DNA of 64,000 nucleotides from an uncultured Mycoplasmatota bacterium (GTDB lineage Bacteria; Bacillota_I; Bacilli_A; Izemoplasmatales; Izemoplasmataceae): NCBI GenBank assembly GCA_913062645.1, contig CAJXVW010000002.1:301433-365432 (forward strand), read 5' to 3'. This document shows positions 7,859 to 45,061 of this stretch, one piece after another. The position numbers and the translations under genes were made by a program. The notes beneath the pieces were generated by a model. It saw only the letters and a list, made by a program, of their open reading frames with translations, searched no databases and was not told the origin of the DNA. The first letter of the stretch is position 1; every line of letters starts with the position of its first letter.

Positions 7859-8073
7859 ACTGTTCTCCTTATCTCATTAAGTAAATTTCATCACACTATA
7901 TAGTATCATAAAAACGCTTTCAATGGTACCCTATTATAAATATTGGTTCCGGATTGCTTCAGTTGATAATTTCAATTTTTTAATACTCACTTTGTTCATC
8001 AATTATAATTTTTTACATTCTAACAAACCTCATATGTTAGGTGATATTTTTCCGTGATTAATTCATCATTATT

Positions 8074-8107: not shown

Positions 8108-9856
8108 ATGTCTACGGAGCTTTATCAATCATTTGAGCAATTTCGAAAGAAACACTACCCAAATAATGAAAGCCTTGCTATAGATATCTATTTCGATACA
8201 CTTCTTCTTGTTGTTTGTCGGAATCTTTTAATTTGTGATAGTTTTGAAGCTGATTTGTTTTCTTACTCCAAGCTGGATAACGTACTTAGTTACATACCAA
8301 ACACATTAGAGTTAACGCCAGATGATATAGGTGTAGCCTATGAGAAAGCTGTAAATCGAAGAAAAACAGGAACATATTTTACCCCAAGAATCGTTACTGA
8401 TTTTATTGCAAAAAAAGCTTTGGATCAATATCATGCAAAGGAATCAAACTCCCAACCAAAGGTTCTAGATCCGTCCTGTGGATCAGGAGAATTTTTGCTC
8501 AGTGCCTTCGAATATCTTTTATTAAACAATACAGATGAGAAAAACGACATACAAGAAAGAATAATTAAATTATCTGATCAGATTTATGGCGTGGATATAA
8601 GCAGAACAGCTATAGAAATTGCGCGATTTCGACTTATCTACTGTGCTCTTAGCAATGGTTTAAGTCTTAAGAATGTCCCCAAGCTCAAGTTTCACCTGTA
8701 TGTAGGTAATTCTGTTCTCGGAAATGGATATGGAGGCCGCAGATCTCTAAAAAGGATTTTTGAAGAACAGCCTAAAGTATTCAATTATGAAGAGTGGTTA
8801 TCAGAATGCAACCCATTTAATTGGCGACGCGTTGCTACTAGATTTGATATAGTTGTCGGTAATCCTCCTTATATAGAATTATCAAAAGTTAAATCGTATA
8901 AGCCAACCCTGTCATCTTCTCAAACTGGCAACATTTTTGCATCATTTGTTGAAAGAAGTCTAGATTTATTAAGTGACGGTGGCGTAGTCGGAATGATTCT
9001 TCCTATTTCTTTTCTTACGACTAAAAGAATGAAACCTATTCGTGATCTGGTTCTAGCAAAATCATCTATTGTGGAGATTTACTCTTATGCAGATCGGCCT
9101 GGGAGTTTATTCACTGGTGTACATCAGAAACTGAATATCTTGTTCTGCAAAAAAGGCGATCCATCTGGCACTGCTACAATACGCACAAGCTCTTACATCC
9201 ATTTTTATTCAGACCGAATCACATTGGACACGCTCGACCCAGGAACAATTACAAACGAGCTTGTTTTTGATGACGGCATACCAAAACTTGGGAATGATAT
9301 TGAAAAGTCGATTTTTAACAAGGTGTACAATTGGGAAACCCAACAGACTTTTAATTATGGCGGGAAGCATCACTTGTATATTAACTCTAGAAGTTGTTTT
9401 TGGATGAAAACTTTCTTTGATCAACCACACTCTTCTGATTATCTTGATTTGAAGTTTGATAACCAAAACCGAGCGAGACATGTATATGCGGTTTTCAACT
9501 CCTCGTTGTTTTTTTGGTTCTGGGAAGTAATTTCTGATGGGTGGCACTTGAGGAAAGCAGATCTCAATAAGTTTAACTTCAAATCGAAGGAGCCCAATGC
9601 GGAGTTGATAAAACTAAGTTCTATTGTGGAAAATAAGTTGGAAACCACAAAAATGTATATTGGAAGTAAACAAGTTGATTACGAATATAAACATAAACTA
9701 GTTAAGAAGGAACTAGACCAAATTGATAAGGTGTTAGCGAAAATTTATGACCTTACTGACGAAGAACTTAAATACATAATAAAATATCAGGTGAAATATC
9801 GTATGAATGATGAGTACGGAAATTATATCAAAACGAGTGATCTATATGAAACTTAA
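8108..9856 (+). CDS. N6-adenine DNA methyltransferase, gamma-class (Eco57I/N6_Mtase-like)
   Basis: Motif I VLDPSCGSGEFLL lies upstream of motif IV VVGNPPYIE. A long C-terminal region is consistent with a target-recognition domain. Confidence 0.8.
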   Translation: MSTELYQSFEQFRKKHYPNNESLAIDIYFDTLLLVVCRNLLICDSFEADLFSYSKLDNVLSYIPNTLELTPDDIGVAYEKAVNRRKTGTYFTPRIVTDFIAKKALDQYHAKESNSQPKVLDPSCGSGEFLLSAFEYLLLNNTDEKNDIQERIIKLSDQIYGVDISRTAIEIARFRLIYCALSNGLSLKNVPKLKFHLYVGNSVLGNGYGGRRSLKRIFEEQPKVFNYEEWLSECNPFNWRRVATRFDIVVGNPPYIELSKVKSYKPTLSSSQTGNIFASFVERSLDLLSDGGVVGMILPISFLTTKRMKPIRDLVLAKSSIVEIYSYADRPGSLFTGVHQKLNILFCKKGDPSGTATIRTSSYIHFYSDRITLDTLDPGTITNELVFDDGIPKLGNDIEKSIFNKVYNWETQQTFNYGGKHHLYINSRSCFWMKTFFDQPHSSDYLDLKFDNQNRARHVYAVFNSSLFFWFWEVISDGWHLRKADLNKFNFKSKEPNAELIKLSSIVENKLETTKMYIGSKQVDYEYKHKLVKKELDQIDKVLAKIYDLTDEELKYIIKYQVKYRMNDEYGNYIKTSDLYET

Positions 9857-10862
9857 TGTCCTAGACCTTTTTGCAGGTGCTGGTGGTTTTTCTGCCGGTT
9901 TTAAACAGGCAGGCTACAATATCTTGGCCGCAAATGAGATTGACTCCATGATTGCAGAAACGTATAAACGAAATCATCCGAACACACTCACATATGTTAG
10001 CGATATCAAGATCTTCAAAGACAAGCTAGATTCTTTGCCTGAGAACATTGATGTTATTATTGGTGGACCACCCTGCCAAGGGTTTAGTATGGCTGGCGCC
10101 AGGAATAGAGAAAACAAACATGAAAAATTCATTAATGATGAGCGGAACCTGTTATTCCGCGAATATATCGAGATAGTTAAAAAATTAAAACCAAAAGCTT
10201 TCATTATGGAAAACGTAGAAGGTCTTGTTACCATGGATAAGGGATCCGTAATTAGTGAGATTGTTGAACTCTTAGGTGATAACAAATACGTTGGTCAAAA
10301 GTATAAAATCGAGTACAAGATTATCAATATGTCAGATTATGGAATCCCCCAAATCAGGAAACGTGTTATTATAGTTGGATATCGTAGCGAATCTGAACAT
10401 ATGAGCTTTTTTGATATTCTTAAGAATAAACGCGAAGGATTGGTTACTGTTAAGGACGCAATCTATGACTTAATGGGCTTAGAGAATACCATTCCAAACC
10501 ATACACCGACAAAACATTCTCCAGTTGCCATCAGCAGGATGAAACGAATCCTACCTGGAGAAAACTATGCTGTCTTAGGAGACACAAACATCAAATCTAT
10601 ACATAGTGGATCCTATGGTCGCATGGTGTGGAATAACCCTTCTAAAACTATTACAACACGCTTCGATACGCCTTCTGGTGGCGAATACATTCATCCCAAG
10701 GAACATCGCACGATCACGCCAAGAGAGGCTGCCAGAATTCAAACCTTTGATGACAACTATACTTTCTATGGAAACAAGAGTTCAATAATCCGTCAGATCG
10801 GTAATGCTGTGCCACCTAAAATGGCATACAAAATTGCCGTTTCGTTAAAAGAAATCTTATAG
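9846..10862 (+). CDS. DNA (cytosine-5)-methyltransferase
   Basis: Motifs LDLFAGAGGFSAGF (I), GGPPCQGFS (IV), ENVEGL (VI) and QIGNAVPP (X). Start taken at ATG 9846 (MKLNVLDLF), overlapping the upstream stop. Confidence 0.9.
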   Translation: MKLNVLDLFAGAGGFSAGFKQAGYNILAANEIDSMIAETYKRNHPNTLTYVSDIKIFKDKLDSLPENIDVIIGGPPCQGFSMAGARNRENKHEKFINDERNLLFREYIEIVKKLKPKAFIMENVEGLVTMDKGSVISEIVELLGDNKYVGQKYKIEYKIINMSDYGIPQIRKRVIIVGYRSESEHMSFFDILKNKREGLVTVKDAIYDLMGLENTIPNHTPTKHSPVAISRMKRILPGENYAVLGDTNIKSIHSGSYGRMVWNNPSKTITTRFDTPSGGEYIHPKEHRTITPREAARIQTFDDNYTFYGNKSSIIRQIGNAVPPKMAYKIAVSLKEIL

Positions 10863-10873
10863 GGGGGAAATTT

Positions 10874-12025
10874 ATGAAACTATTTAGTCAACTTCTTAGT
10901 GAAATCCGCACTGGTGCCAGAGCGTTTTGGTGGGTACCAAAACACACACCAGACCTAAAAGAACAGCTTACCCGGTGTGAATTGCTAGACGACTTTCATA
11001 GAACGAACCAAAAAGGATCTTTTCGTGATTACTATGGAAAACATTTCCCAATCGAAACATACAGAAAGTTGGACATTTCACGCTACCTAGGGTTAATAAC
11101 CAATCACACTAGCTATGATGACTGTAGAGTAACCAAAAAATATAGAGACATCATGAAACATCATAATGGTAATATTGATTTAATTGTTAAACACCCCGAG
11201 TTGACTGATCACTTATTCGAACAGCTCTCCGTCAAAGGTCTAAATCAGCCCTACCAAAACCCATATAACATTGTATTCAACTATATTGAAAATAGCCCTA
11301 GCCAGTATGTCACACGGGCTGAGTTCATGCTGGTTGTTTGCTCAACATGGACCGAACAACAGTACATAGATGGCTTGAAGATAATTCAATATATTCGATC
11401 CAATAATGTTCGTTTAGAAGCTCTACCTGAATATGCTTCGACAAGTGAAATAAGAATTCACAAGTATCTTGAACAACACTCAATATTCTCATTCGGTACC
11501 AGCAAGTTTGAATTTTCCAAAAAATATAAGCCAATCGATCTCATCGAACAACTCGAGGACACAAAAGAACAAGTTAGAATCCAAAAAAGCAAACATTATT
11601 CTACACAATCAGATATCAAAAAATCAAACAACAGAAAACCAAATAAGAAATCCTCAAAAACTGGTAGTTCCTCATACACCACGGATGCAAGACTTGGGAA
11701 GACTGCATTGCAAAATGCAAATTTCACTTGTGAATATGCATCACTTACCAAACAAACACATCCAACGTTTGATACAAAAGCCGGCAAGCGGTATGTTGAG
11801 GCACATCATTTAATACCAATGTCTGCACAAGATACATATCTACCAGACAACATTGATAGAACCGAGAATATAGTTGCATTGTGTCCGATTTGTCACCGTG
11901 CAGTCCATTATGGTAATAGTTTCGAAAGATATAAGATACTTGATGTTCTATTCAATAATCGGAAACGATTATTACAGAATGCAGGCATTAATATCACTTT
12001 GGGTGATTTATTGAAACATTATTAG
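10874..12025 (+). CDS. HNH-family nuclease, probable restriction endonuclease of the two-methylase R-M operon
   Basis: C-terminal HNH motif: VEAHHLIPMS ... NIVALCPICHRAVHYG. It starts 11 nt after the C5-MTase stop, with GGGGGG SD. Confidence 0.65.
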   Translation: MKLFSQLLSEIRTGARAFWWVPKHTPDLKEQLTRCELLDDFHRTNQKGSFRDYYGKHFPIETYRKLDISRYLGLITNHTSYDDCRVTKKYRDIMKHHNGNIDLIVKHPELTDHLFEQLSVKGLNQPYQNPYNIVFNYIENSPSQYVTRAEFMLVVCSTWTEQQYIDGLKIIQYIRSNNVRLEALPEYASTSEIRIHKYLEQHSIFSFGTSKFEFSKKYKPIDLIEQLEDTKEQVRIQKSKHYSTQSDIKKSNNRKPNKKSSKTGSSSYTTDARLGKTALQNANFTCEYASLTKQTHPTFDTKAGKRYVEAHHLIPMSAQDTYLPDNIDRTENIVALCPICHRAVHYGNSFERYKILDVLFNNRKRLLQNAGINITLGDLLKHY

Positions 12026-12046
12026 CAGACAATAGTCTGCTTTTTA
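12024..12046 (+). terminator. Rho-independent terminator closing the R-M operon
   Basis: AGCAGAC-aata-GTCTGCT hairpin followed by TTTTATT, overlapping the stop codon at 12023-12025. Confidence 0.6.
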
Positions 12047-12074
12047 TTATATTTCATGTTTTTCAATCACAATA

Positions 12075-12103
12075 TTGACTATATATTGAACATGTAGTAT
12101 ATT
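12075..12103 (+). promoter_or_regulatory. Sigma-A-type promoter of GHKL cassette 1
   Basis: TTGACT, 17-nt spacer, TATATT, about 20 nt upstream of ATG 12124. Confidence 0.5.
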
Positions 12104-12123
12104 ATTATTGTGGAGATGATAAA

Positions 12124-12339
12124 ATGGAAACTAAAAAAGATAAATTTATTCGACTGGCAGAGAAACGAGTCAATAATCTATTGAAACAGATGGAGCTTGT
12201 TGGCAATCTGGCAAACAAGAGAAACTACGATTATTCCGACAAAGAAGCTAGGGCAATATTAACTGCGATAAAGAAAGCATACCAAAATTTGGAAGTTCAA
12301 TTTGATAGTGCCAAGAATAAGAAGTTTAAGTTGAAATAG
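12124..12339 (+). CDS. Small basic protein, copy 1 of a duplicated ~72-aa family (unknown function)
   Basis: 71 aa. In my hand alignment, 35 of 71 positions are identical to ORF 22657..22878 (DKFI-LAEKRVNN-KQ-LVGNL-N ... KFKLK). Confidence 0.6.
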   Translation: METKKDKFIRLAEKRVNNLLKQMELVGNLANKRNYDYSDKEARAILTAIKKAYQNLEVQFDSAKNKKFKLK

Positions 12340-12359
12340 GGCTAGGGAGGGTCGTATGT

Positions 12360-14690
12360 ATGAATTATGCAAACTATGTTATGGAAGAAAAATTAGTTGC
12401 TCAACCAAACAATCCGGATAAGCAGATCGACAATCACAGAAAGATGTATGAATCACAATGTGACTATGGCTGGATACATGCTTTTCAAAAGGATGCGATT
12501 CAGAATAGTATGGGAGCCCGGGTCCAAAGGGATTATACCGGCTTTTCTGTTGAGATCTTTATCGAAGAAACTAACCAAGGTACCTTTGTCATTGTTGAAG
12601 ACCATGGAACTCACGGGTTAACCGGTCCGAACTTGGATAGAGAAGAGATTGAGAAATTACAGAAATCAGGAGATTTAAAATCCAACCTGCGTCTTGCTAG
12701 GTTTTCTTCGTCAAATAACTCTGGAGACATTGACTTGGGGGGAGGGTTGTTCGGGATCGGAAAAAGCGTTTATGCAATGGCATCCACTACCAAGACTTAC
12801 TTCTTCGATAGTCTTTGTGATGATGGTTATAGAGCTAATATTTTTCGTGCAGGATACTTGTATGGCAGAGCCGAAGAAGGTGTTCAAGCACAAGAGTTCA
12901 TCAAAAATAACACTGGATTGGACATTCTTGAGTCTTCAGGAACAAGAATTGTTATTTGTGAACCAGATCCAGATCTCCTTACAGCTATTGAAGACGGTAC
13001 ACTTATCCGATATGTCGAAGAAACATGGTGGCGTGCAATCGTAATGTTTCCAAATTCTGCTCATATTATCATTAATAGTATTGAAGCAAATAAACCGAAA
13101 GCTCTCAATAATAACAATATAATTCAAATGGATCAACTTGAAAAACCATACCGTCTAGATTCATACACAGTAAAACGAATCGGGCTATTTATTGTTAGGC
13201 AATGTGAAGTTGATGAGAGTGGATTCTACTTCTACAGACGCGGTATGCGTATTGGTAAGATTAATATTCAAAGTGTACCTAAGAAGTTAAATAATGATTT
13301 CATTGGCTATATTGAAATTGATGAAACCTGGGAATCCGAACTCTCAAATATTGAAGGAACAGCTCATTATGATGTTACTCATGGAGGTAAACATACAAAA
13401 GTATATAGTGTTCTTAGAAATGCTGTGAATGAGTACTTTACTGATATGATGGAGCAATGGGGTTACTCCTCTACGGAAAATTACGAAGATAAGAAGTTAA
13501 ACAGACAGATACATGAGATAAAGGCCAGGCTTGAAGATTTATTCGATAATCTGGGATATGATGATCTTGGCAAAGGAACAAGAAAGAAAAAACTTCATAT
13601 TCGATGGAAAAAAATCCTATACCCTGAAAAAGATACGAAGTCCGTTTATGAAAATGGCCATATTCACCTGGAGTTTGAGCTCACAAACGAGTATAAATCA
13701 CACAATAAGATAATCTTATCATCTTCCATTATTAACTACTTCCAGCAAGAAACACTGAATAGCAGAGAAACAATCTCACTGGAACCAAATCAAGTGTTTT
13801 CGGGATCAATTGACTTTGATCTGACAGACAGTAATTCAACCAAATATGAGAAGAATCGAATACAGGTTGTTGTCACACCCACTCGCGGTGATAAGATTAT
13901 TAAAAAGTTTGATTACTTCTATTTCGCGGATACACCAGAAGTTACGAAACGCGATTTCAACTTATCTCTACACGACATCCTGCTGCCGCGAAAGACTTCA
14001 AAAAGGGTAAACACTGGTGAATCAATCGAAAATGTTGTCTACACAATATCGAATAACACTTCATCTCCTGTCTCTCTTATGTTGAGTGTATCAACACATA
14101 ACATGGAAATGAATGGTAATGAAATTGAAGGCATAATGAGACAGACGCTCAAATTAGAACCAGGTGAAGATAAGAATATTGAAACTGGTCCAATTTTGTT
14201 GGAGCGCGACGTATACGAAAATCATCTAACAAAAGGGATAGTCCAGTTGAGAGCCCGGCTGATTGCAAATTCAACCATTGGATCCATTCAAAAAGGCGAT
14301 CGTTTAGCAACATATAAATATCAAATTTACTTCAATCGCAATGAGAAGAAAGGTATTCAAGATACTTTCGAGCCCTATCCACTGAAACAACCCGAAGATC
14401 CAAGAAGATCTTGGACTGGTGGAGCAGGGGAAAATCGAATGATATATCTGAATGTATCACATCCTGCGTATAGTTTGTCAAAAGATAACGGTACGACTGA
14501 AAGTTATATTTTTGAACAAATGCTAATTCAATTTGTAAATTTGTACATAAGAGAGGGGAATTACTCAGTGTTAGAAACGGATAAAGATGAGTTTTTAAAC
14601 CGTGATCCATACCAACAATACGAACTGATTCTGAAAAGTATTGACACCCTACTATTTAGGTCCCTTGGGGGCAATCATGCCAGTAATTAG
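12360..14690 (+). CDS. GHKL (Bergerat-fold) ATPase-like protein, 776 aa
   Basis: N-terminal motifs: KDAIQNSMGA (N-box-like), VEDHGTHGLTG (G1, DxGxG-like) and GGGLFGIGKSVY (G2). The remaining ~550 aa are unrecognised. GGAGGG SD. Confidence 0.5.
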   Translation: MNYANYVMEEKLVAQPNNPDKQIDNHRKMYESQCDYGWIHAFQKDAIQNSMGARVQRDYTGFSVEIFIEETNQGTFVIVEDHGTHGLTGPNLDREEIEKLQKSGDLKSNLRLARFSSSNNSGDIDLGGGLFGIGKSVYAMASTTKTYFFDSLCDDGYRANIFRAGYLYGRAEEGVQAQEFIKNNTGLDILESSGTRIVICEPDPDLLTAIEDGTLIRYVEETWWRAIVMFPNSAHIIINSIEANKPKALNNNNIIQMDQLEKPYRLDSYTVKRIGLFIVRQCEVDESGFYFYRRGMRIGKINIQSVPKKLNNDFIGYIEIDETWESELSNIEGTAHYDVTHGGKHTKVYSVLRNAVNEYFTDMMEQWGYSSTENYEDKKLNRQIHEIKARLEDLFDNLGYDDLGKGTRKKKLHIRWKKILYPEKDTKSVYENGHIHLEFELTNEYKSHNKIILSSSIINYFQQETLNSRETISLEPNQVFSGSIDFDLTDSNSTKYEKNRIQVVVTPTRGDKIIKKFDYFYFADTPEVTKRDFNLSLHDILLPRKTSKRVNTGESIENVVYTISNNTSSPVSLMLSVSTHNMEMNGNEIEGIMRQTLKLEPGEDKNIETGPILLERDVYENHLTKGIVQLRARLIANSTIGSIQKGDRLATYKYQIYFNRNEKKGIQDTFEPYPLKQPEDPRRSWTGGAGENRMIYLNVSHPAYSLSKDNGTTESYIFEQMLIQFVNLYIREGNYSVLETDKDEFLNRDPYQQYELILKSIDTLLFRSLGGNHASN

Positions 14691-15450
14691 AAAAGATAAA
14701 GAAAACTATAAGACCTATCTTGGATTAATGTCAGATGAAGAGATGGAGCACGCTGATGTACTCCTAGAAAAACTAATTAATGAAATCCCTCAAGTCGAAT
14801 CTAGTTTACAAAGAAAATATAACAACTCCCTAGATTATAAGTATTATTTAGGAAAACATTTGCATGATTATATAACCTCAGAAGGAATAAAAGAGAGAGA
14901 GAGATTATACTTCTGGCGTGAAATCGAAGACTTCGCATCAACAAATGATAATCCAAATAGCGAAAGTGATCAAAGGCATTTTTATGAGTATTGTTATACT
15001 ATCTACACTTTTGGATATGATATCGCTCATGCGCTCACCTACAGAGAGTGGAACGACATATTAGCTAGAAAAAAAATCCGACAGGATGAGCGAATATTTA
15101 AGTGGTTCCTGGACAAAAAGACTAATCATGAATCACTAAACTGGCGCTCTCTGCTACCTACCTTAAATAGCTATCTTACAAAAACTGACACGTCTGTTTT
15201 TTCTGATCAAGAACTCTTCGCAATGTATGATAAACTACATCTAATTGCATATTGCTTCGATAATTTTGTTAAAGAGTATGGCGGAAAGAATAAGTCAAAC
15301 TTGACACCGGCAAGAAGAAAGCATTTCTCCAAATACAAGAAAAAATATATTTCCGAAGCCTTACAATCACTGAGAGAGAACCGACTAGACGAAAAGTATT
15401 TAGAGAAAATATTTTCAAAAATCTTTCTAACAAATATGAAATCAAGCTAA
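14677..15450 (+). CDS. Hypothetical protein, third gene of GHKL cassette 1
   Basis: ATG 14677 overlaps the GHKL stop by 14 nt. The ORF is 257 aa and I recognise no motifs. Confidence 0.45.
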   Translation: MPVIRKDKENYKTYLGLMSDEEMEHADVLLEKLINEIPQVESSLQRKYNNSLDYKYYLGKHLHDYITSEGIKERERLYFWREIEDFASTNDNPNSESDQRHFYEYCYTIYTFGYDIAHALTYREWNDILARKKIRQDERIFKWFLDKKTNHESLNWRSLLPTLNSYLTKTDTSVFSDQELFAMYDKLHLIAYCFDNFVKEYGGKNKSNLTPARRKHFSKYKKKYISEALQSLRENRLDEKYLEKIFSKIFLTNMKSS

Positions 15451-15502
15451 TAGACACTAGATATGCTGACGACTATGAGTTTATTATCCGGAGGTTTGTT
15501 GT

Positions 15503-16492
15503 ATGCCCTTCAACGTCATCCGTAACGACATCACCAAAATGCAGGTCGATGCCATCGTCAATTCCGCCCACCCCGAACCCGCCATTGGCGGCGGGGTGGA
15601 TTTCGCCATACACGAAGCTGGTGGTCCGGAGCTGGTGCAAGCCAGGATCGCCCTTGGTGACATTTTTGTCAGTGACATAAAAGTCACCAGGGGATACAAT
15701 CTTCCTAGCAAGTATGTGATTCATACTGTCGGACCGAGATGGGAATCCACGAACAAGAAGAAAGAAGATGAGTTGTATCGGTGTTATTACAACTCACTAA
15801 TGGAAGCAAGCAAGCTCGGTTGCGAATCGGTCGCACTGCCATTGATTTCCGCGGGAACCTACGGCTTCCCGCGTCATCTGTCGATGTCGATCTGCAACGA
15901 CGCGGTTCGTGATTTCCTCGAAGATCATGAGATCATGATCTATCTCGTCGTCTTCGATCAGGAATCCTACATCATATCCAACGAACTCTACAACACCATT
16001 GAAGAATTGATTCATTCGGATGCCGTCGTTCGTCAGATCGAGCGCGAAGTCGCCTATGGCGCACGGCGCCGGAAAGAACGATTGGAACGTCCGGTTCGCT
16101 TACGCACACAAAAGGTCATGCATGAAAGTGTCCGCTTCGATCCCAGAGACAACGACAAGTCCTTCCGCGACAAGCTGTTCGAACTGATCGATGACCGTGA
16201 CATGACGGATCCCGAAGTCTACAAGAAGGCGAACCTCACCCGCCAACACTTTTCCAAGATCCGCAGCAACAAGGACTATCATCCATCCAAATCGACGGTA
16301 CTCGCATTGTCCATCGCGTTGGAGCTGGACATCGATGAAACCGAGGACCTCTTATCCAGAGCAGGATACAGTTTGTCTTGGTCGTTGTCATTCGATCGGG
16401 TTGTCCGTATGTTCATAGAAGATGAGGTGTATGATATCTTCCTGATCAATGAAGCATTGTTGGAGTTTGATTTGGAAACAATTGGAATATAA
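15503..16492 (+). CDS. Macro-domain (ADP-ribose binding/hydrolase) protein with C-terminal XRE-like HTH
   Basis: Macro motifs AIVNSAH...GGGVDFAIHEAGG and ALPLISAGTYGFP. The C-terminus has ANLTRQHFSKIRSN...STVLALSIALELD. Composition is host-like rather than island-like. Confidence 0.8.
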   Translation: MPFNVIRNDITKMQVDAIVNSAHPEPAIGGGVDFAIHEAGGPELVQARIALGDIFVSDIKVTRGYNLPSKYVIHTVGPRWESTNKKKEDELYRCYYNSLMEASKLGCESVALPLISAGTYGFPRHLSMSICNDAVRDFLEDHEIMIYLVVFDQESYIISNELYNTIEELIHSDAVVRQIEREVAYGARRRKERLERPVRLRTQKVMHESVRFDPRDNDKSFRDKLFELIDDRDMTDPEVYKKANLTRQHFSKIRSNKDYHPSKSTVLALSIALELDIDETEDLLSRAGYSLSWSLSFDRVVRMFIEDEVYDIFLINEALLEFDLETIGI

Positions 16493-16496
16493 AGAA

Positions 16497-16520
16497 TAGG
16501 CAGCCTATATGGGCTGCCTA
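16497..16520. terminator. Hairpin between convergent genes
   Basis: TAGGCAGCC-tatatg-GGCTGCCTA, a 9-bp stem with weak U tracts. Confidence 0.4.
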
Positions 16521-16544
16521 TAATTATGTATAGACTCCTAAATA

Positions 16545-18080
16545 TCAAGCTTCATTATCACCTGCAGATAGTTGTGGTCTCTGAAAACTCTCAAACGTTG
16601 TGCTAATACTCTTCAGATGGTTGTCTATACGATCAATGATTACTTTATCAATCTTGCTTTTCACTTCTTCCAAACTTTCATCTTCTTTGTAAGTAATGAT
16701 GTTGGTAATCTTTATAGTTGTCCATTTTTTGGATGATTTGGTTTTTTGTTTTTCTTTTTGGTTATAATACTCAATCAGTTCATCTCTCTCGTAACCATCG
16801 GATGGACCAATAACGGTTGATAACTTCACATCTTTTTCTCTTATCTGTAGTTCATGAAGGAGGATTGAACCATCTTTCACCCAACCGTGTGATACATTCG
16901 GATACATACGATTGATTGATCGTAGTGTGTCATCCGTGAAGCGAACGATTCTCTTGACACAATGGTTTAACTCAATGTCGTTGAAGTCTGATAATTTTTC
17001 TTTTAGGTATTCAGATATTTCATAGATCATATCAGGTTTGTACTCATATATTAAGTCCAACGCCTTTTTGTGTTTATAGTATATCCTTCTGCATAGTTTC
17101 ATTAAATCTTCATCGGTCATAATATGTCTCCTTAAGATGTCTCGATAGTCTTTTAAAAAAGAAGAAACGGAATCGCTTGACTTTTGAATTACTCTATCTA
17201 CTTGTTCGATGATTCCATCATATGAGTAAGTACCCCAGGTATCAGGATCAGATGATTCATCTCCGTCTTTTGTCAAGTAGACGAATAACTGCTTAAAGTT
17301 GGAATACTTCTCTCGAACGATTTCCTTATACTTGTTTAGTTGGTTATGATGCTCGGTGGTATCTACTTTATTTTCAATTACAATTACAAGTTGATTTTCG
17401 CGATCAATTAGTAATATATCGATATTGTCTCTTTCTCTATATACCTCAGTTTGATCGTAGTCCCACAGGAAGATATCTTCCGTATGGATACCTTGCTCGA
17501 GATATAATTTCTTATTTCTAAGATAGACATCTCGAATGAATAATTGTATGAACATATCCCCAAGTTCATGCGACTCGTTCGGATTCAAAAGCCAACTTAA
17601 CACATTGGAATGTCTGATTTCATTTCTTACAATCGATAAGGTCTCGAATAGATTAAATTTAGTAATGTCTTGTAACTGATCAAGATCAGATATATTCTCA
17701 AGAAACTCTGTGACGTAGTTGTATTTCTTAGTGATATCCTCACTAGTAACATCGATTTCCAAAGATGATTCGTAGTCGCCAATTGCTCTACCATCCTCTA
17801 GTTTCCATTCATAGGTGCCAGCGGCCGGTCTACCACCAATCACAGCCGCAGCGGAACTTAAACTGTTAAACAGGTAATCCTCTTTTAGAACAAAAGTATT
17901 GTCAACTATCCCAGAATTTAGCATACGCTCTCTAAGTTTATTATAATGGTGGTTCTTAAAACTCTTTGAAATCGTTTTTTCAAAAATCGCACCTTTTTGT
18001 ACCTTGATATTTCTGTCTTCAGTATCGTAAGTACCCTGCGCAAGTGCGTTCTTCATTGATAAAGTCAGATTGATTTTCAT
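16545..18080 (-). CDS. DUF4357-like N-terminal domain fused to a PD-(D/E)xK nuclease-fold domain
   Basis: N-terminus: FNSLSSAAAVIGGRPAAGTYEWKLEDG (pattern F-SPS-AA-V-G---NG--W as I remember DUF4357). Middle: RHSNVLSWLLNP ... NIDILLIDRENQLVIVIENKV (D...E-x-K). Confidence 0.55.
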   Translation of the reverse strand: MKINLTLSMKNALAQGTYDTEDRNIKVQKGAIFEKTISKSFKNHHYNKLRERMLNSGIVDNTFVLKEDYLFNSLSSAAAVIGGRPAAGTYEWKLEDGRAIGDYESSLEIDVTSEDITKKYNYVTEFLENISDLDQLQDITKFNLFETLSIVRNEIRHSNVLSWLLNPNESHELGDMFIQLFIRDVYLRNKKLYLEQGIHTEDIFLWDYDQTEVYRERDNIDILLIDRENQLVIVIENKVDTTEHHNQLNKYKEIVREKYSNFKQLFVYLTKDGDESSDPDTWGTYSYDGIIEQVDRVIQKSSDSVSSFLKDYRDILRRHIMTDEDLMKLCRRIYYKHKKALDLIYEYKPDMIYEISEYLKEKLSDFNDIELNHCVKRIVRFTDDTLRSINRMYPNVSHGWVKDGSILLHELQIREKDVKLSTVIGPSDGYERDELIEYYNQKEKQKTKSSKKWTTIKITNIITYKEDESLEEVKSKIDKVIIDRIDNHLKSISTTFESFQRPQLSAGDNEA

Positions 18081-18185
18081 TTTGTTCTTACTCCTTTAAA
18101 CGGTCATATACAACGAATTTTGTTGAGCTTCCTTACGATCTCTCACAAAATTTGATGAAAGACTATCCTATATAACACTTATGAT

Positions 18186-19133
18186 TTATAAATAGTTCTT
18201 TGCAGACAAATTATCTAAATCAAAATCAATCGCTTTTTTTACTGACATCAATAGATCAGAAATCTCATTGTTTGAAATACTATCATAAATGCTAATTGCT
18301 GTGTAATAATTAATACTCTTAACATCATCAAGACCTAAAACATTAGTAACAATTGATCTTTTGTGATGATTCGAAAATGCTTTCGATATATAAATGTAGT
18401 CCCTAATGTACTTCTTGAATGCATTGACCCTTTCTTCAAGTTTAAATACTTCTAAATAATAAGGCGACATTTTATTTACTTGTATATGGAACTCATTAGT
18501 TTGAAGCTTAACTTGGTGTATCTTGGGTATAGCCTCTTTTTTGATTTTCAGACTGAACAACTCTGGTGGACAAATCTTATTAATGTCCTCTATCACTAGC
18601 TCTTTGTCATTTTTCAAAATCGAATTACATGTGTAACAGCTACAAACTAGATTCCCGTATGACATAGATAGTATTGGATATTTCGACATAGGGAAAACAT
18701 GGTCGAGAAAACCTGTATAGTGTTTTCTGTTTTTACCCCTAAATATATATCCAATTTGAGTTTGGCAATAATCACAGGTATATGATCCAAGCGAATTAAA
18801 TAAGAATTCAGCAGAAGAACTCTGATCATATTTATTGGCAAACGAGTCTTCAAGAAACTTAGTAATAATCTTCTTATTCTTGGTTTCTTTAGCGATTTTT
18901 CGTATAGTCATGTAATCTGAAAAAAACAAATCATATACCGTATAGTTAGAACTATAGCAATTCTTTATACGTCTTTTGTTGGGCAACTCGTGCAAGTAGA
19001 TATTTTTATATTGGTCTTCAATTGGCAGATCAGTAATTTGCTTCCGTTGGATAATTTCTTCTAGATGCTTCGGAATTCTTGAATTGCTTCGAAGCCCAAG
19101 TATGTATTGTTTGTATAAGTATTTATCTATCAT
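18186..19133 (-). CDS. HNH endonuclease, Septu PtuB-like
   Basis: CDYCQ ... LDHVFPMS ... NLVCSCYTCNSILKND matches the TIGR02646-like C-x2-C / DH / N / C-x2-C-N layout. The start overlaps the stop of the upstream ATPase gene. Confidence 0.5.
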   Translation of the reverse strand: MIDKYLYKQYILGLRSNSRIPKHLEEIIQRKQITDLPIEDQYKNIYLHELPNKRRIKNCYSSNYTVYDLFFSDYMTIRKIAKETKNKKIITKFLEDSFANKYDQSSSAEFLFNSLGSYTCDYCQTQIGYIFRGKNRKHYTGFLDHVFPMSKYPILSMSYGNLVCSCYTCNSILKNDKELVIEDINKICPPELFSLKIKKEAIPKIHQVKLQTNEFHIQVNKMSPYYLEVFKLEERVNAFKKYIRDYIYISKAFSNHHKRSIVTNVLGLDDVKSINYYTAISIYDSISNNEISDLLMSVKKAIDFDLDNLSAKNYL

Positions 19134-20859
19134 TATTAGCGACTATCCTTTCCAATGTACTTCTTAAAAAATCATCGCCAATCTGCTCAACACGCTTTAC
19201 ATCTTGCTCTGTATACTGATTGTTAATAATTCTTCTTATCAACTTCTCAGAATAAGCTCCTATAGTTGATTTAATGATTAAATTATCTACCGATATATCT
19301 CCTATGTGCTTGGCTATGGTCTTATTTGGATTGTTTCCAACATGTAAATGATCTAGATTACTTAAGTCAAGGATATTTGTTGATGGAATGTCAGAGATAA
19401 TATATGGTGAATGTGTTGAAATAATAAAATGGTAATTACACTTCACCCCTTGAAATATATTTGTGATGTCCTGAATGAGATTTCTAGATAACTCTGGATG
19501 AAGGGTTAAATCAGGTTCATCAATAAGAATATATATATCCTTAGCACCTACGCTACTATTGATATTGTCTTCAATAGCTATTTTGGATAGATCTAATAAA
19601 AGACTTGTGTAGTCCTCTTCTCCTTTTGATCCGCTAAAAAGATCTAGCGAGGTAAACATCCTTATCATCTCATTGTCGAACTCTTGATCAGAGAATGTAA
19701 CGCTTTCCTTAAAAAGATACCTGCGCGCAACGTCTTTGTCTTGAAGATTTTCAATCATATCTAAGAAATCATTATACTTATTCAGTACTCTTTCGTACAA
19801 AACATTAGAATCATCAAAAAGAACAATCGGTCCGTCACCTTTATCCTCAAACCTATTTATGCCTAAAGTACCGGCATAATTCAGTAATACTCTCAGATCT
19901 TCTTTTGCAATGTCAACACTAAATGAGTTTGTGTTATGAGACAAAACAGTAAGAATTTGACCCATGTCATTGATGAAGTCTTCGCCTGTTAATCTAGTAA
20001 TCAATCCTTGCTCTTCGAAAACATGTAGTCCACCAAAAAACTCCTTCACGATGTTAGTCATTAAAAATTCATACAAGTTGATATCTTTGTACTCTTTTTG
20101 ATTTAACATGGTATTAAACCCATAATACTCATCATATTCAATGTCGAAATTGAGCAAATAGTCTGATACTTCTTTTTCGAATTGCTTTTCCCTGTCAGCA
20201 TCTTTAGGGTATAGCTCATAACTCATTGGTTTGAATGATAAGCAAACAGCATCACTATCGAAGTTTCGAAGTTTCTCCTTTAAGAAAACCTTGTTCTGAA
20301 AAAAGAATATCAATCTCTCAAGTTGAGAGCTAATTCTTAATTTCTTTCTTCTAGTAAAATAGTATCCCCCATGAACTCGAGTATCTAAATCAATATTAGT
20401 GTAAATGGGTCCTCTATCTTTGGCTTGATCCATATCATATAAACGAACATAAGTTTCATATTCTTGCTTACTCCAAAAGGGTTTTGTAACAAATCCTCTG
20501 TCTTCCGAGTCATCTTTTCCATTGATAACTACATTTGGAGTTTTCTTATTTCCGGTATATCCTTCTAAATAGCACATTTCTCTATTATTTACGTAAACTA
20601 AAATATACTCATGTAAATATTTGAAGCTTAGCATCTCAAGAACTGTAGTCTTCCCGGCACCATTTATCCCTAATAGAGCTGTAAAATGGACATTATTGTC
20701 ATCTGTATGATAAAAGTCAAAGATACCAGTTTTCCTAGTGATGTTAATTATGAAATGATCTTCATCAATTTTACAATCTACATTATACTTCATGTCAAAC
20801 TGTATAAATTGATTATTGAAATTTCTTGCTTTAATTACATAAACCCCAATTAGTTTCAT
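19123..20859 (-). CDS. ABC/AAA_15-type ATPase, Septu PtuA-like
   Basis: Walker A LLGINGAGKTTVLE, Walker B IYILIDEPDLTLHP, and ISTHSPYI. No Toprim or nuclease domain seen. Overlaps the downstream HNH gene. Confidence 0.55.
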   Translation of the reverse strand: MKLIGVYVIKARNFNNQFIQFDMKYNVDCKIDEDHFIINITRKTGIFDFYHTDDNNVHFTALLGINGAGKTTVLEMLSFKYLHEYILVYVNNREMCYLEGYTGNKKTPNVVINGKDDSEDRGFVTKPFWSKQEYETYVRLYDMDQAKDRGPIYTNIDLDTRVHGGYYFTRRKKLRISSQLERLIFFFQNKVFLKEKLRNFDSDAVCLSFKPMSYELYPKDADREKQFEKEVSDYLLNFDIEYDEYYGFNTMLNQKEYKDINLYEFLMTNIVKEFFGGLHVFEEQGLITRLTGEDFINDMGQILTVLSHNTNSFSVDIAKEDLRVLLNYAGTLGINRFEDKGDGPIVLFDDSNVLYERVLNKYNDFLDMIENLQDKDVARRYLFKESVTFSDQEFDNEMIRMFTSLDLFSGSKGEEDYTSLLLDLSKIAIEDNINSSVGAKDIYILIDEPDLTLHPELSRNLIQDITNIFQGVKCNYHFIISTHSPYIISDIPSTNILDLSNLDHLHVGNNPNKTIAKHIGDISVDNLIIKSTIGAYSEKLIRRIINNQYTEQDVKRVEQIGDDFLRSTLERIVANNDR

Positions 20860-21140
20860 TATAAATCCCTTCCTCTCAAATTTCGTATCATATATATCCG
20901 TTAGCTTGAATTATCTAAACATTTGACTCAATATAGTCTGTCAAACTAATTTCAATATGTTTCACAACTATATTATATCACGAATCTCTATAAAAATGCG
21001 TTATATCTAGCACAACAGGAGATGCCGTAAAAACAGTCGTTATCATCTTGATAGTTTCTATAGCTTAGTCCTAATCGATGTTGAATGGTATGTGAACATG
21101 ACCAGTCTGATTACATTAAATGTCGCCTGCCAGGCGACCA

Positions 21141-21194
21141 GATCACTCCTTCGTTGTGGCATACTATAGTCATAAACCAAACGAAGGAGTGATT
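21141..21194 (+). promoter_or_regulatory. SD-sequestering hairpin in the leader of the vWA gene
   Basis: CACTCCTTCGTT (21144-21155) pairs perfectly with AACGAAGGAGTG (21180-21191), which contains the AAGGAG SD of ATG 21198. Confidence 0.4.
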
Positions 21195-21197
21195 TTC

Positions 21198-21842
21198 ATG
21201 AAACAAGATTTGACGGAAATGGTATTCATCCTGGATCGCAGCGGATCGATGGCCGGGTTGGAAAAGGATACCATTGGCGGATTCAACTCGATGATCGACA
21301 AACAGAAAGACCTCGACGGTGATGCGATTGTCTCGACGGTCCTCTTCGACAACCACTTCGAGGTCATCCACAACCGCGTGAATCTCAAAGACATCTCGCA
21401 CCTGACACACAAAGACTACTACGTACGTGGTTCTACTGCTTTATTGGACGCAATCGGGCGATCGATTCGAAAGATCCGTACGATCTACGCGGAAACCTTG
21501 CGTGAAGATCGTCCGGACAAGGTGATGTTCGTCATCACCACCGACGGCATGGAAAACGCCAGTCGCCAGTTCTCCTATCATGACATCCAGCACATGATAC
21601 AGGATGTCAAAGAGAAATACGGCTGGGAGTTCCTATTCTTAGGCGCCAACATCGACGCCGTCGGCGAAGCTCGTCGCTTCGGCATCGATGCCGACCGCGC
21701 CGTTCGGTACCACGCCGACAAGGTCGGCACCCAAGTCAACTACGAGGCAATCAACGATGCAGTGTCTTCCTATCGAATGAACAAGGCGATCTCGAAGGAA
21801 TGGAAACAAAAGGTCGAGGACGATTTTGAGAAGCGCAAGTAA
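21198..21842 (+). CDS. von Willebrand factor A (vWA) domain protein
   Basis: MIDAS motif VFILDRSGSM, plus GSTALLDAIG and ITTDGMENAS. Start moved to ATG 21198, behind AAGGAG. Confidence 0.75.
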   Translation: MKQDLTEMVFILDRSGSMAGLEKDTIGGFNSMIDKQKDLDGDAIVSTVLFDNHFEVIHNRVNLKDISHLTHKDYYVRGSTALLDAIGRSIRKIRTIYAETLREDRPDKVMFVITTDGMENASRQFSYHDIQHMIQDVKEKYGWEFLFLGANIDAVGEARRFGIDADRAVRYHADKVGTQVNYEAINDAVSSYRMNKAISKEWKQKVEDDFEKRK

Positions 21843-22148
21843 GTTCCGATCCATCACGAATTGAAATGGACTTAAAAACCGGACAGATTTGCCGTATTCT
21901 CACAAAACTCAGTATGATATGACCTTATGTGAACGTAGGGGATGACCGTACTACCGCCATCGCATGGCGGGGCAACGTGGTTGCCAGCGGATTCATGCGA
22001 AGGGGAAAACAGTTCGTCCAACACGAACTGTTTTTTCATTCCCCAGACACGACAAGACAAGCGATAGAACATGTCTCCCTCTTGATTGATTTTTGCCTTC
22101 GCTTGTCTTGTTGCATTTGAATGCTCGGCCCAACTACCACACAAAAGG

Positions 22149-22409
22149 ATGATGAACATGACGAAAACATCCCATGCATTGATATTGATCATCGTCACGG
22201 TTTACGTACTTTGCACTATGGTTCTATGGCTGTCGCCGATCGCAGTAAGGATCGATCCCATGGCCCGGATCATGACCATCGGTTTCTTCGGCGTGTGCGT
22301 GTTAGTTGTAACTTTGAGTTTCTATTTACTCAAAGGCCCGGAACACCCTTTCAGTTTCTCCGATCTATATGATTCGAATATATCAAAACGAAAGAGGAGG
22401 GGATCCTGA
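22149..22409 (+). CDS. Small two-TM membrane protein
   Basis: Two hydrophobic helices (ALILIIVTVYVLCTMVLWL and IMTIGFFGVCVLVVTLSFYLL). The start is uncertain. Confidence 0.35.
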   Translation: MMNMTKTSHALILIIVTVYVLCTMVLWLSPIAVRIDPMARIMTIGFFGVCVLVVTLSFYLLKGPEHPFSFSDLYDSNISKRKRRGS

Positions 22410-22605
22410 ACAGAGCAATCAATGCTCATTATGCAACACAGCGCTTTTGCATAAATGCATATTTACTAAGGATTATCTACGTTATCTAACCAATCTGATA
22501 AAATGACAACCCAGTCACGACATAATGGATATCTTATCAAATCAAGAGCCATATTCAAGTTATATGTGTTTTTTATATATTTTATTATATCTATTTTACT
22601 AATAT

Positions 22606-22635
22606 TTGACTAATATGCTCTCCTTATGTTACCAT
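22606..22635 (+). promoter_or_regulatory. Promoter of GHKL cassette 2
   Basis: TTGACT, 18-nt spacer, extended -10 TGTTACCAT; AAGGAG SD at 22642-22647. Confidence 0.45.
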
Positions 22636-22656
22636 TAAATCAAGGAGTGATTTTAT

Positions 22657-22878
22657 ATGTCAAAAAAGCATGATAAATTCATTGATTTGGCCGAAAAGAG
22701 AGTCAATAATGCAATAAAGCAAATCCAATTAGTAGGAAACCTCTCAAACACATCATATTATGAATATGAGGATACAGAAGTCGATAAGATTTTTCGCACG
22801 CTCAAGAACGAGTTGAAAATCGCTCAAGATCGTTTTGCTAGTCGGCATCGCGAAGAGCCGAAGTTTAAGTTGAAGTAA
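22657..22878 (+). CDS. Small basic protein, copy 2 of the duplicated ~72-aa family
   Basis: 73 aa, homologous to 12124..12339 (see that entry). First gene of the cassette. Confidence 0.6.
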   Translation: MSKKHDKFIDLAEKRVNNAIKQIQLVGNLSNTSYYEYEDTEVDKIFRTLKNELKIAQDRFASRHREEPKFKLK

Positions 22879-26311: not shown

Positions 26312-27158
26312 ACTCTACCTATATCCGGTTCTGCACGAACTGAGAGATGACTATTTGGAAGACTCAAAGTTTTCTGTGGTTATTGAAGCAAAACAGCGTA
26401 CCACGAGTGTCGATTTGAGCGTGACATTTACGGTAAACGATAACCTGATTGAACAATATATAAGGGAAGAGAAATTCTTGCAGATCGTTCACGTCGAATG
26501 TCCGAAAACCAAGTTGAGGACTATACACCGAATCAAGAGTGACGAGATAAAAATCGATGTCAGTATACCTTCTGGTTTGCTTAATGGTGTAGTTGAAATT
26601 TCACCAATGATTATCTCCAACTATACCGGCCCTTACTACAATCCGAACTTCTCAGATGATTACAATGGTTTGGATATAGAATTGTCAATAGGCAATATTG
26701 TGGCATATGATGATACGCGGTACTTCTATGTTGAGAAAGATCGCATGGAATACGTTGACGTTGAATCGGTGTTCGTCTTGAACCGGACAAAAAACAATCA
26801 CATGATAATTGATGTAACCAGTGGTGATAAAATTGTTGTCGACCTTCCAAATGAAATCTATGCAAGTTATTTTGCCTTGGATGATGAAATCAATCGAACC
26901 ATCTCTTTGCAGATGATCATTTATCCCGCAGTTATCAAAGCGCTTGAAATGCTTGCAAATGAAGAGACCCGTTCACATGTCAAACATAAAAAGTGGTATC
27001 TCACCTTCAAAAATCAGCTGGCCAAGTACGATTATGACATCGATTCTAACTCATTGTCCGACATGGACGAGAAGTACGTTGCGGCACAAAAATTGCTCGA
27101 AGATCCTCTTCTTAGATCATACATTGAACTTACCAAGCTCCAGGAGGGATTATCATGA
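26292..27158 (+). CDS. Hypothetical protein (288 aa), cassette 2
   Basis: ATG 26292 lies behind GGAGG and overlaps the GHKL stop by 20 nt. I recognise no motifs. Confidence 0.45.
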   Translation: MKLNKNRLYLYPVLHELRDDYLEDSKFSVVIEAKQRTTSVDLSVTFTVNDNLIEQYIREEKFLQIVHVECPKTKLRTIHRIKSDEIKIDVSIPSGLLNGVVEISPMIISNYTGPYYNPNFSDDYNGLDIELSIGNIVAYDDTRYFYVEKDRMEYVDVESVFVLNRTKNNHMIIDVTSGDKIVVDLPNEIYASYFALDDEINRTISLQMIIYPAVIKALEMLANEETRSHVKHKKWYLTFKNQLAKYDYDIDSNSLSDMDEKYVAAQKLLEDPLLRSYIELTKLQEGLS

Positions 27159-45038: not shown

Positions 45039-45061
45039 AAAGACCATTTAAGGTCTTTTTT
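45039..45061. terminator. Bidirectional terminator between convergent genes
   Basis: AAAGACC-atttaa-GGTCTTT flanked by A and T runs. Confidence 0.55.

Follow-up and report, generated by a model that had tools for sequence, protein, structure and literature searches.

Iyer, Abhiman and Aravind (PMC2292703) described in 2008 MORC and five paraMORC families, ATPases in which a GHKL domain is joined to an S5 domain (GHKL+S5), and placed the paraMORCs in predicted restriction–modification (R-M) operons together with cytosine methylases, Vsr, restriction nucleases, HNH proteins and AIPR; DNA looping was proposed as their activity. Here we compare with these systems a three-gene cassette found in a stretch of 64,000 nucleotides (the window) from an uncultured bacterium of the Izemoplasmataceae (contig CAJXVW010000002.1). 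The cassette, which we call the triad, encodes a small basic protein, a 776-residue GHKL protein and a 257-residue helical partner, and it stands directly behind an operon of two methylases and an HNH nuclease. Among the R-M-associated GHKL systems of paraMORC type it is a variant that has gone without annotation, with two partner families that have not been described and a six-gene form that is conserved. Systems of this general kind were already predicted in 2008, and a sister cassette in the same window is already the PADLOC candidate system PDC-M33; the triad module is uncommon.

Comparison with described GHKL+S5 proteins

The family that most resembles the triad's large protein is paraMORC2. 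As presented in the 2008 paper, paraMORC2 proteins have a GHKL domain followed by an S5 domain, which is also the arrangement that the AlphaFold (AF2) model and its Foldseek matches give for the 776-residue protein, and they carry an ExxxH motif at the end of the S5 domain; in the window this motif appears as E332/H336 in the 776-residue protein and as E372/H376 in M33A, the large protein of the sister cassette, and is invariant in both families. Neighbourhoods with C5-cytosine (C5) methylases, Vsr, restriction endonucleases, HNH proteins and AIPR, and a sporadic distribution that is mostly among Gram-positive hosts and includes archaea, are likewise common to paraMORC2, as there described, and to the triad family. 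The linkage to superfamily II helicases that was typical of the 2008 survey, by contrast, is absent from the triad loci, and the small protein, the helical partner of 257 residues and the immunoglobulin (Ig)-like domains of the large protein have no mention in the main-text passages of PMC2292703 that were searched. With reservations, we place both large proteins of the window in or next to paraMORC2, because the ExxxH motif lies in the same place and the neighbourhood is of the same kind; the placement is by described motif, domains and neighbourhood. The paraMORC2 family has been described by computation only.

A second branch, paraMORC3, is the Shedu protein VcSduA (type I-D), the activity of which depends on a C-terminal PD-(D/E)xK nuclease as well as on the ATPase, and which makes clear that real defence proteins exist within the paraMORC radiation (PMC12137116). 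VcSduA is a single protein whose C-terminal nuclease belongs to DUF4263, whereas the 776-residue protein has no DUF4263 match in Pfam or PADLOC, ends in Ig-like and helical domains and has two partners. Our literature search found no experimentally tested paraMORC branch other than paraMORC3. The MORC ATPases, eukaryotic and prokaryotic, are like the triad in having the GHKL+S5 engine and in being associated with DNA methylation. Their likely mode of action is ATP-gated dimeric clamping of DNA. The C-terminal domains of MORC differ from those of the 776-residue protein, which also gives no match to the HATPase_c_3 model of MORC and has YRRGM(K/R)IG in its S5 domain, no search having been aimed at the MORC motif GhXhhpXXRhl.

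The 776-residue GHKL protein

The triad has the layout that the first-pass annotation, made from the letters of the sequence alone, had given it, including the overlap between the last two genes:

12124 to 12339, plus strand: small basic protein of 71 residues, isoelectric point (pI) about 9.9, first partner of the GHKL protein
12360 to 14690, plus strand: GHKL protein of 776 residues, recognized from its motifs, AF2 model, Foldseek and profile comparison
14677 to 15450, plus strand: all-alpha partner of 257 residues, overlapping the GHKL gene by 14 nucleotides, defined by homologue alignment and AF2

The third open reading frame, which ends at 15450, has possible starts at 14641 and 14677; the ATG at 14677 is the right one, because homologues of about 254 residues align from there.

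The 776-residue protein had no meaningful match in Pfam, PADLOC or NCBIfam and no significant match to the HATPase_c or HATPase_c_3 models, and sequence searches of the PDB, with the protein itself and with a 21-sequence profile, gave nothing significant. The three GHKL motifs that had been read in it by eye (DAIQNSMGA, DHGTHGLTG and GGGLFGIGK) are nevertheless all present and, when 21 homologues with 23–52% identity to the query are aligned, N49, D81, G86, G89, G129, G132, G134 and K135 are invariant. Motif I (the N-box, ExxxNxxD) corresponds to QKDAIQNSMGA, with N49 invariant and D45 nearly so, and motifs II (DxGxG) and III (GxxGxG) are also found, G83 being nearly invariant. The AF2 model (predicted local distance difference test, pLDDT, 85.7) comprises five parts:

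Residues about 10 to 232: Bergerat-fold ATPase domain
Residues about 233 to 345: S5/transducer domain with the RxGM(K/R)I and ExxxH motifs
Residues 347 to 398: two long helices
Residues about 405 to 662: tandem Ig-like beta-sandwiches
Residues about 700 to 770: C-terminal helical domain

In Foldseek the two N-terminal domains matched the GyrB 43K structures 6enh, 1kij and 3zkd (E about 1e-8), with template modelling (TM) scores, normalized to the target, of 0.45–0.52, and the beta-sandwiches resembled the FnIII pairs of RbmA and the C-terminal barrels of transglutaminases. The sole internal stretch of low confidence, residues 121–130, is the loop before GGGLFGIGK, as would be expected for a flexible ATP lid. 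The first-pass proposal had made its case depend on an ATPase fold being predicted by structure modelling, and the model has a Bergerat fold followed by a transducer; motifs and model together identify the protein as a GHKL+S5-type ATPase with intact binding motifs. Its family forms 103 clusters at 90% identity, all of them 'hypothetical' or without a name, and only two, P0002 and P0003, are more than 40% identical to the protein of the window.

Two places in the protein were considered as nuclease sites. A beta-beta-alpha element at about residues 671–710 was rejected as a His-Me finger nuclease, N698 and H701 alone being conserved there. The acidic cluster E319-D321-E325-E332-H336 in the S5 domain is a candidate for the site of an unrecognized nuclease.

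The two partner proteins

The small protein has no match in Pfam, PADLOC or NCBIfam and no PDB relative by profile search, and yet it belongs to a large family. Searching 1.84 billion proteins with a profile made from the two copies in the window gave 3937 cluster representatives (50% identity) at E ≤ 1e-3, and 739 at E ≤ 1e-10. Almost all of these are stand-alone proteins of 70–110 residues; the family has a median pI of 9.7 and the signature F..LAE.R.N…LLGN.SN…Y.Y. Tandem duplications of the small gene and fused two-copy proteins were also seen (L102, 6001–6605; L119, 502–1026; and several matches of 155–182 residues).

The 257-residue protein likewise matched nothing in Pfam, PADLOC or NCBIfam. 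Its AF2 model is all-alpha (pLDDT 85.8) and found no match with Foldseek in the PDB (best E 0.57) or in BFVD (best E 1.3). The invariant residues of the family are mostly Arg, Trp and Tyr, a composition that we infer would suit nucleic-acid binding, and this Arg/Trp/Tyr-rich helical protein is a further candidate for the place of an unrecognized nuclease site.

Recurrence of the triad and its linkage to C5 methylases

A scan of one genome per species with the 776-residue family gave 80 loci, mostly in gut and rumen Bacillota and otherwise in Veillonella, Streptococcus oralis, Neobacillus, Planctomycetia, bacteria of the candidate phyla radiation (CPR) and several archaea. Neighbours were counted by profile searches of all open reading frames at the 60 loci with a full-length homologue (at least 700 residues). 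The third gene lies directly 3′ of the GHKL gene at all of them (60 of 60) and the small gene directly 5′ of it at 46 of the 54 that could be evaluated, so that, judged by gene order, the small gene and the 257-residue gene are two obligatory partners of the GHKL gene. Among deeper relatives, a set of 23 loci with GHKL proteins of 620–690 residues, the partner was found at 12 of 20 and the small gene at 10 of 23.

A C5 methylase gene is present within 6 kb at 51 of the 60 full-length loci, and directly 5′ on the same strand at 24 of 46 evaluable loci. The commonest conserved unit, from neighbour clustering and Pfam, is [HTH_17 protein]–C5 methylase–small protein–GHKL protein–partner, with a methylase of about 530 residues and flanks that vary. 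The C5 methylases directly 5′ of the small gene in L003–L058 are about 527–556 residues long and have about 200 additional residues inserted between ENV and QxRxR, a stretch that has no Pfam or PDB relative and that may couple the methylase to the GHKL module. The same insertion was considered as a hidden nuclease and set aside when no PDB relative was found. At other loci a shorter C5 methylase is accompanied by a FokI/AlwI-like or NgoFVII-like endonuclease, by Vsr or by AIPR; no recurrent helicase cluster was found among the neighbours of the 80 loci. A DNA search of E. coli genomes and a tblastn search of sequenced plasmids and phages gave no match, and IMG/VR contains one locus of the family; a scan of IMG/VR with the HNH protein of the window gave none.

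On these counts the triad is linked specifically and persistently to C5 methylases, and it is probably the ATP-driven arm of a methylation-based anti-phage system. The reading that we prefer, by somewhat better than an even chance, is that the triad is one module, an ATP-driven arm tied to C5 methylation that acts on unmarked DNA.

The six-gene form

The two methylases and the HNH nuclease that had been read immediately 5′ of the cassette are confirmed by Pfam and PADLOC:

8108 to 9856, plus strand: N6-adenine methylase of the Eco57I/N6_Mtase type, 582 residues (Pfam Eco57I 8e-26, N6_Mtase 5e-17)
9807 to 10862, plus strand: C5-cytosine methylase, 351 residues (Pfam DNA_methylase 2e-79)
10874 to 12025, plus strand: HNH nuclease, 383 residues (Pfam HNH_2/HNH about 1e-5; PADLOC restriction endonuclease models)

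The trio has the form of a methylase-plus-nuclease operon, the genes of the N6 and C5 methylases overlapping and the HNH gene following 11 nucleotides after the C5 gene. The N-terminal part of the HNH protein, about 270 residues, is unique, residues 274–383 alone matching other HNH proteins, and the protein is putatively the type IIS-like restriction enzyme of the trio.

Both of the closest relatives of the 776-residue protein keep the trio. In P0002 (GHKL protein 52% identical; metagenome contigs L090 and L091) the order is N6 methylase–C5 methylase–HNH–small protein–GHKL protein–partner, exactly as in the window, and in P0003 (42% identical; L001) the small, GHKL and partner genes come first and are followed directly by N6 methylase, C5 methylase and HNH. 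The trio proteins of L090/L091 are 48% (N6 methylase), 63% (C5 methylase) and 58% (HNH) identical to those of the window, and those of L001 are 43%, 59% and 47% identical; over the proteins compared, identity to the window ranges over 48–63% for L090/L091 and 42–59% for L001. By this comparison the triad and the trio have stayed together while diverging to about 42–63% identity and while the order of the modules was rearranged, a co-inheritance for which island clustering alone hardly accounts. The first-pass annotation had left open whether this copy of the triad uses the neighbouring R-M genes or works independently; the comparative data favour coupling, because both relatives in the sub-clade keep the trio and because 51 of 60 loci in the wider family lie near a C5 methylase.

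Described systems of comparable make-up are the HNH type IIS enzymes with asymmetric sites, such as HpyAV, for which one C and one A methylation are needed (PMC2816704). These two-methylase systems combine an adenine methylase, a cytosine methylase and an HNH protein, as the upstream trio does, known here from its genes. The trio therefore has, by analogy, the look of a type IIS-style system that acts at an asymmetric site, in which the C5 methylase would guard one strand and the N6 methylase the other while the HNH enzyme cuts. Since one adenine and one cytosine methylase suit such a site, the six genes are probably a single working unit in which the HNH protein is the cutter. The trio presumably resembles MnlI as well. 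To our knowledge, no HNH type IIS two-methylase system needs a GHKL module.

That the triad and the HNH trio are inherited together in each of the three sub-clade members would also be expected if the GHKL complex were an accessory motor for a conventional restriction endonuclease, looping or clamping DNA so that the sites of recognition and of cleavage meet, or processing cut DNA, and taking no part in telling self from non-self. Restriction endonuclease genes stand beside the C5 methylase at several other loci, and DNA looping is what was proposed for the paraMORCs in PMC2292703. The commonest unit of the family, however, with its HTH_17 protein, C5 methylase, triad and variable flanks, contains no restriction endonuclease to assist, and we consider an accessory motor unlikely, though worth keeping in mind.

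Probable promoter and operator of the triad

The terminator and the promoter that had been placed between the R-M operon and the triad were both found:

12024 to 12046, plus strand: terminator-like hairpin AGCAGAC-AATA-GTCTGCT (12024–12041) followed by a T-run, 3′ of the HNH gene
12075 to 12103, plus strand: promoter-like site TTGACT-17-TATATT, with the palindrome CTATAT-N7-ATGTAG (12079–12097) in its spacer

The promoter scan by itself proves little, because such matches are frequent in AT-rich DNA; 40 were found in the AT-rich window against 29 expected. The comparative evidence is stronger. At the equivalent intergenic position in L090/L091, a different hairpin and T-run precede TTGTCT-17-TACAAT, the spacer of which is almost identical, and in L001, where the triad comes first, a promoter core with a near-identical spacer also lies 5′ of the small gene. 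The three-way alignment of the window, L090 and L001 gives the nearly invariant core TATTg.CTATATATT.AA.AT.TAGTA, although the proteins of the three are only 42–63% identical. This core holds the palindrome CTAYAT-N7-ATRTAG, of which the 64-kb window has exactly one copy; it was looked for 5′ of the R-M operon and is not there. We read 12075–12103 as probably a promoter with an operator in its spacer, and the conservation indicates that the triad has a regulated promoter of its own. The small protein was tried as the binder of the operator and rejected, the variant of its helix 1 (EKRVNN or EARTNK) not tracking the type of promoter palindrome.

At the canonical loci (L005–L046 and others) a strong TTGACA-17-TAtAAT promoter lies about 50–130 nucleotides 5′ of the small gene, and the palindrome AATATTTGAAAAATATT stands once or twice ahead of that promoter. 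The layout is kept across many genera, which suggests a regulator common to the small, GHKL and partner genes, separate from the upstream methylase gene.

Proposed mechanism

In the mechanism that we propose, the 71-residue protein would be the small basic subunit, and the 257-residue protein the helical partner, of a three-protein complex built on the 776-residue protein, a paraMORC-type GHKL ATPase that on binding ATP would form a dimeric clamp around DNA, as other GHKL+S5 proteins do. The neighbouring C5 methylase would mark the host's own DNA, and the GHKL complex, by reading the state of methylation, would serve in defence as an ATP-dependent arm against unmarked incoming DNA. In the window and its two closest relatives the HNH enzyme would do the cutting within the six-gene unit; at loci without a recognizable nuclease, which make up most of the family, the complex would either carry an unrecognized one or block foreign DNA without cutting it. 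The clamp step follows the behaviour of GHKL+S5 proteins in general, and self-marking, action on unmarked DNA and cutting by the HNH enzyme are inferred from the gene neighbourhood.

Several points weigh against this mechanism. Most GHKL proteins have a catalytic Glu at the motif I position that Asp45 occupies in the 776-residue protein, which makes ATP hydrolysis uncertain, ATP binding being better supported. About 15% of the full-length loci have no C5 methylase within 6 kb, and in Clostridium kluyveri the triad stands alone between serine recombinases in a prophage-like element. The terminator and promoter of the cassette make expression separate from the R-M operon possible, and defence islands gather unrelated systems, which inflates neighbourhood statistics. 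Neither a nuclease domain nor a known methyl-DNA reader was found in any triad protein with Pfam, PADLOC, NCBIfam or Foldseek, and a search of the literature on DUF6339, PDC-M33 and GHKL/MORC anti-phage systems found no experimental study of any member.

Some of these points would also be explained by an autonomous defence system whose position near R-M genes is due only to island clustering and in which methylation plays no part; the triad's own promoter and terminator, its solitary occurrence in C. kluyveri and the dense defence island that the window represents all agree with such a system. Island clustering would not, however, be expected to produce a linkage that is specific to one enzyme class, the C5 methylases, and that extends across Bacillota, Veillonella, Streptococcus, CPR bacteria and archaea, often with gene order fixed and strand the same, nor to keep the two modules together after rearrangement, and we regard autonomy as distinctly unlikely. 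The prophage-like setting in C. kluyveri, together with the basic character of the small protein and the operator-like palindrome in the promoter, could also point away from defence altogether, towards the maintenance of a mobile element or epigenetic regulation such as silencing or partitioning. Such a role is the least credible of those considered here, given that sequenced plasmids and phages hardly contain the family, which has a single locus in IMG/VR, and that the family's usual neighbours are R-M-type genes.

Tight linkage to a methylase where no nuclease is obvious is, finally, the one feature that would fit a guard or abortive-infection module, in which the GHKL complex would monitor the methylase or the R-M system and arrest growth upon phage anti-restriction. 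No toxin-like effector domain was found in the triad with Pfam, PADLOC or Foldseek, and nothing in the data suggests the sensing of a phage protein; a guard function is very improbable.

The sister cassette PDC-M33

The second cassette of the window, which begins at about 22.6 kb, contains paralogues of two of the triad's proteins:

22657 to 22878, plus strand: paralogous small protein, 73 residues
24422 to 26311, plus strand: paralogous GHKL protein PDC-M33A, 629 residues (PADLOC 5e-174)
26259 to 27158, plus strand: PDC-M33B (PADLOC 2e-60)
27155 to 27907, plus strand: PDC-M33C/DUF6339 (PADLOC 5e-64; Pfam DUF6339)

The A, B and C models of PADLOC PDC-M33 are thus all matched. M33A comes after the small protein, a D12 methylase of Dam-like type and a 119-residue protein; at other loci the small gene lies directly 5′ of M33A, and in relatives on viral contigs the order is small protein–M33A–M33B–M33C. 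Downstream of the cassette, as far as 34700, are a 1777-residue protein with an AAA_22 region and a 377-residue protein, neither with a PADLOC match.

That the 71-residue protein is homologous to the first gene product of this cassette, as the first-pass annotation had it, is clear from 48% identity (E 6e-19). The kinship that it had proposed for the two large proteins does not appear in a pairwise BLASTP alignment (E 1.8) but stands at the level of profiles (hhalign probability 95%, E 3.6e-8) and of the fold. The three common motifs alone would not establish it, because the pairwise comparison is not significant. The profile alignment of the 776-residue and M33A families covers 342 columns in the N-terminal approximately 400 residues, in which the three ATP-binding motifs, RxGM(K/R)I and ExxxH are common to both; the C-terminal halves are unrelated. 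No relationship was found with hhalign between the 257-residue protein and M33B, M33C or the 119-residue protein, and a PDB sequence search with the M33A profile gave nothing significant. PDC-M33 therefore shares with the triad a homologous small protein, the GHKL+S5 N-terminal half and a DNA methylase alongside, but its methylase is Dam-like whereas the triad's neighbour is a C5 enzyme, and the 776-residue and 257-residue proteins match no PADLOC model, that of PDC-M33A included. In Neobacillus bataviensis (L036) a 776-residue-type locus (10001–12319) and an M33A-type gene (16684–17961) lie about 4 kb apart; the window pairs the two systems likewise, at a distance of about 7 kb (15450 to 22657).

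The wider family

With the small protein as the only seed, a metagenome scan gave 59 loci. Where enough downstream DNA was present, the small gene was nearly always followed, directly or after one gene, by a large protein, in most cases one of 620–830 residues with GHKL motifs; these proteins fall into at least four families with differing third components:

776-residue type with partner: 6 loci
M33A type: about 18 loci, often with M33B/M33C
Third type (C), about 750 residues: about 16 loci, motifs ERLTNAIDA … D.GIG … GTFGQGGS
Fourth type (D), about 820 residues: 3 loci
Singletons: a few loci, one with a weak HATPase_c_3 match (9e-5)

Types C and D are homologous to each other (hhalign 98.9%) and have no detectable relation by hhalign to the 776-residue or M33A profiles. 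A PDB sequence search with their profile gave nothing significant, the best being the GHKL region of TRAP1 (E 0.5), and PADLOC contains none of their large proteins. They are likely GHKL proteins, an identity that comes from motif inspection and weak matches because no profile relation is detectable. Further families of GHKL-like proteins of 730–830 residues, all missing from PADLOC, directly follow the small gene in L092–L150, for example at L124 6223–8478, L137 3140–5596 and L099 927–3128.

At many of the small-protein-seeded loci, too, a C5 methylase lies directly 5′ of the small gene. One partner protein (L092, 8768–10030) has an MTaX1, 'methylase-associated X1', domain, which the group of Aravind ties to the discrimination of modified DNA (PMC10853773). 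Behind the small gene in L095 and L094 lies a protein with helix-hairpin-helix repeats, which by eye resemble the RNA polymerase alpha subunit's C-terminal domain. The proposal that the small protein and the GHKL protein form the conserved core of a modular family is upheld by the GHKL-seeded loci (46 of 54), by the 59 loci seeded with the small protein and by the viral contigs, the pair recurring in other genomes from either starting point. With significant profile homology between the large proteins, recurrence of the pair and a modelled ATPase fold, the first-pass reading held on each of the three points at which it might have failed.

The surrounding defence island

The triad is housed, with PtuAB-like, PDC-S26 and PDC-M33 genes, in a low-GC island of about 40 kb, which occupies roughly positions 8,000–47,500 of the window at 32–46% G+C, the surrounding DNA having about 50–55%. 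Besides the sister cassette, the members considered here are:

8108 to 12025, plus strand: two-methylase and HNH operon
12124 to 15450, plus strand: triad
15503 to 16492, plus strand: Macro domain fused to a Cro/C1-type helix-turn-helix (HTH) domain, 329 residues
16545 to 18080, minus strand: DUF4357 and PD-(D/E)XK protein (PADLOC PDC-S26, 2e-108)
18186 to 19133 and 19123 to 20859, minus strand: PtuB/PtuA-like pair of HNH protein and ATPase (PDC-M62, Septu-like), between the two GHKL cassettes

No terminator-like site separates the triad from the Macro-HTH gene, the next on the plus strand being a two-way hairpin at 16496–16521, and the two may be co-transcribed. As a fourth member of the module the Macro-HTH gene was considered and then rejected, since L090, L091 and L001 all lack it; it lies beside the triad in no relative. 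A second protein containing DUF4357 is encoded at 45060–46325 on the minus strand, close to the right edge of the island. Neither an integrase nor a tRNA gene was found at either edge of the island, and the 64-kb window contains no tRNA gene.

Significance

The small protein and GHKL pair occurs in bacteria, CPR lineages and archaea, and it is conceivable, though we would call it doubtful, that it is the core of a large unrecognized class of methylation-coupled immune systems, the commonest form of which has no nuclease and clamps or compacts DNA that lacks the 5-methylcytosine mark. Both partners, the small basic subunit and the helical protein, would there help to load the ATP-gated GHKL clamp. 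If this were true, the nuclease-free clamp would be a prokaryotic counterpart, and possibly a forerunner, of the MORC silencing of foreign DNA in eukaryotes.

The triad is relevant both to phage defence and to the biology of MORC, GHKL ATPases beside methylases having been predicted for R-M systems since 2008 (PMC2292703). The window offers a compact test case, with two undescribed partners, a natural six-gene version with an identifiable nuclease and the paralogous PDC-M33 nearby. Once the function of the triad is worked out, it would be clear how a MORC-like ATPase makes use of DNA methylation, or reads it, against foreign DNA, and a small-protein family of several thousand members that no database describes would gain a function.

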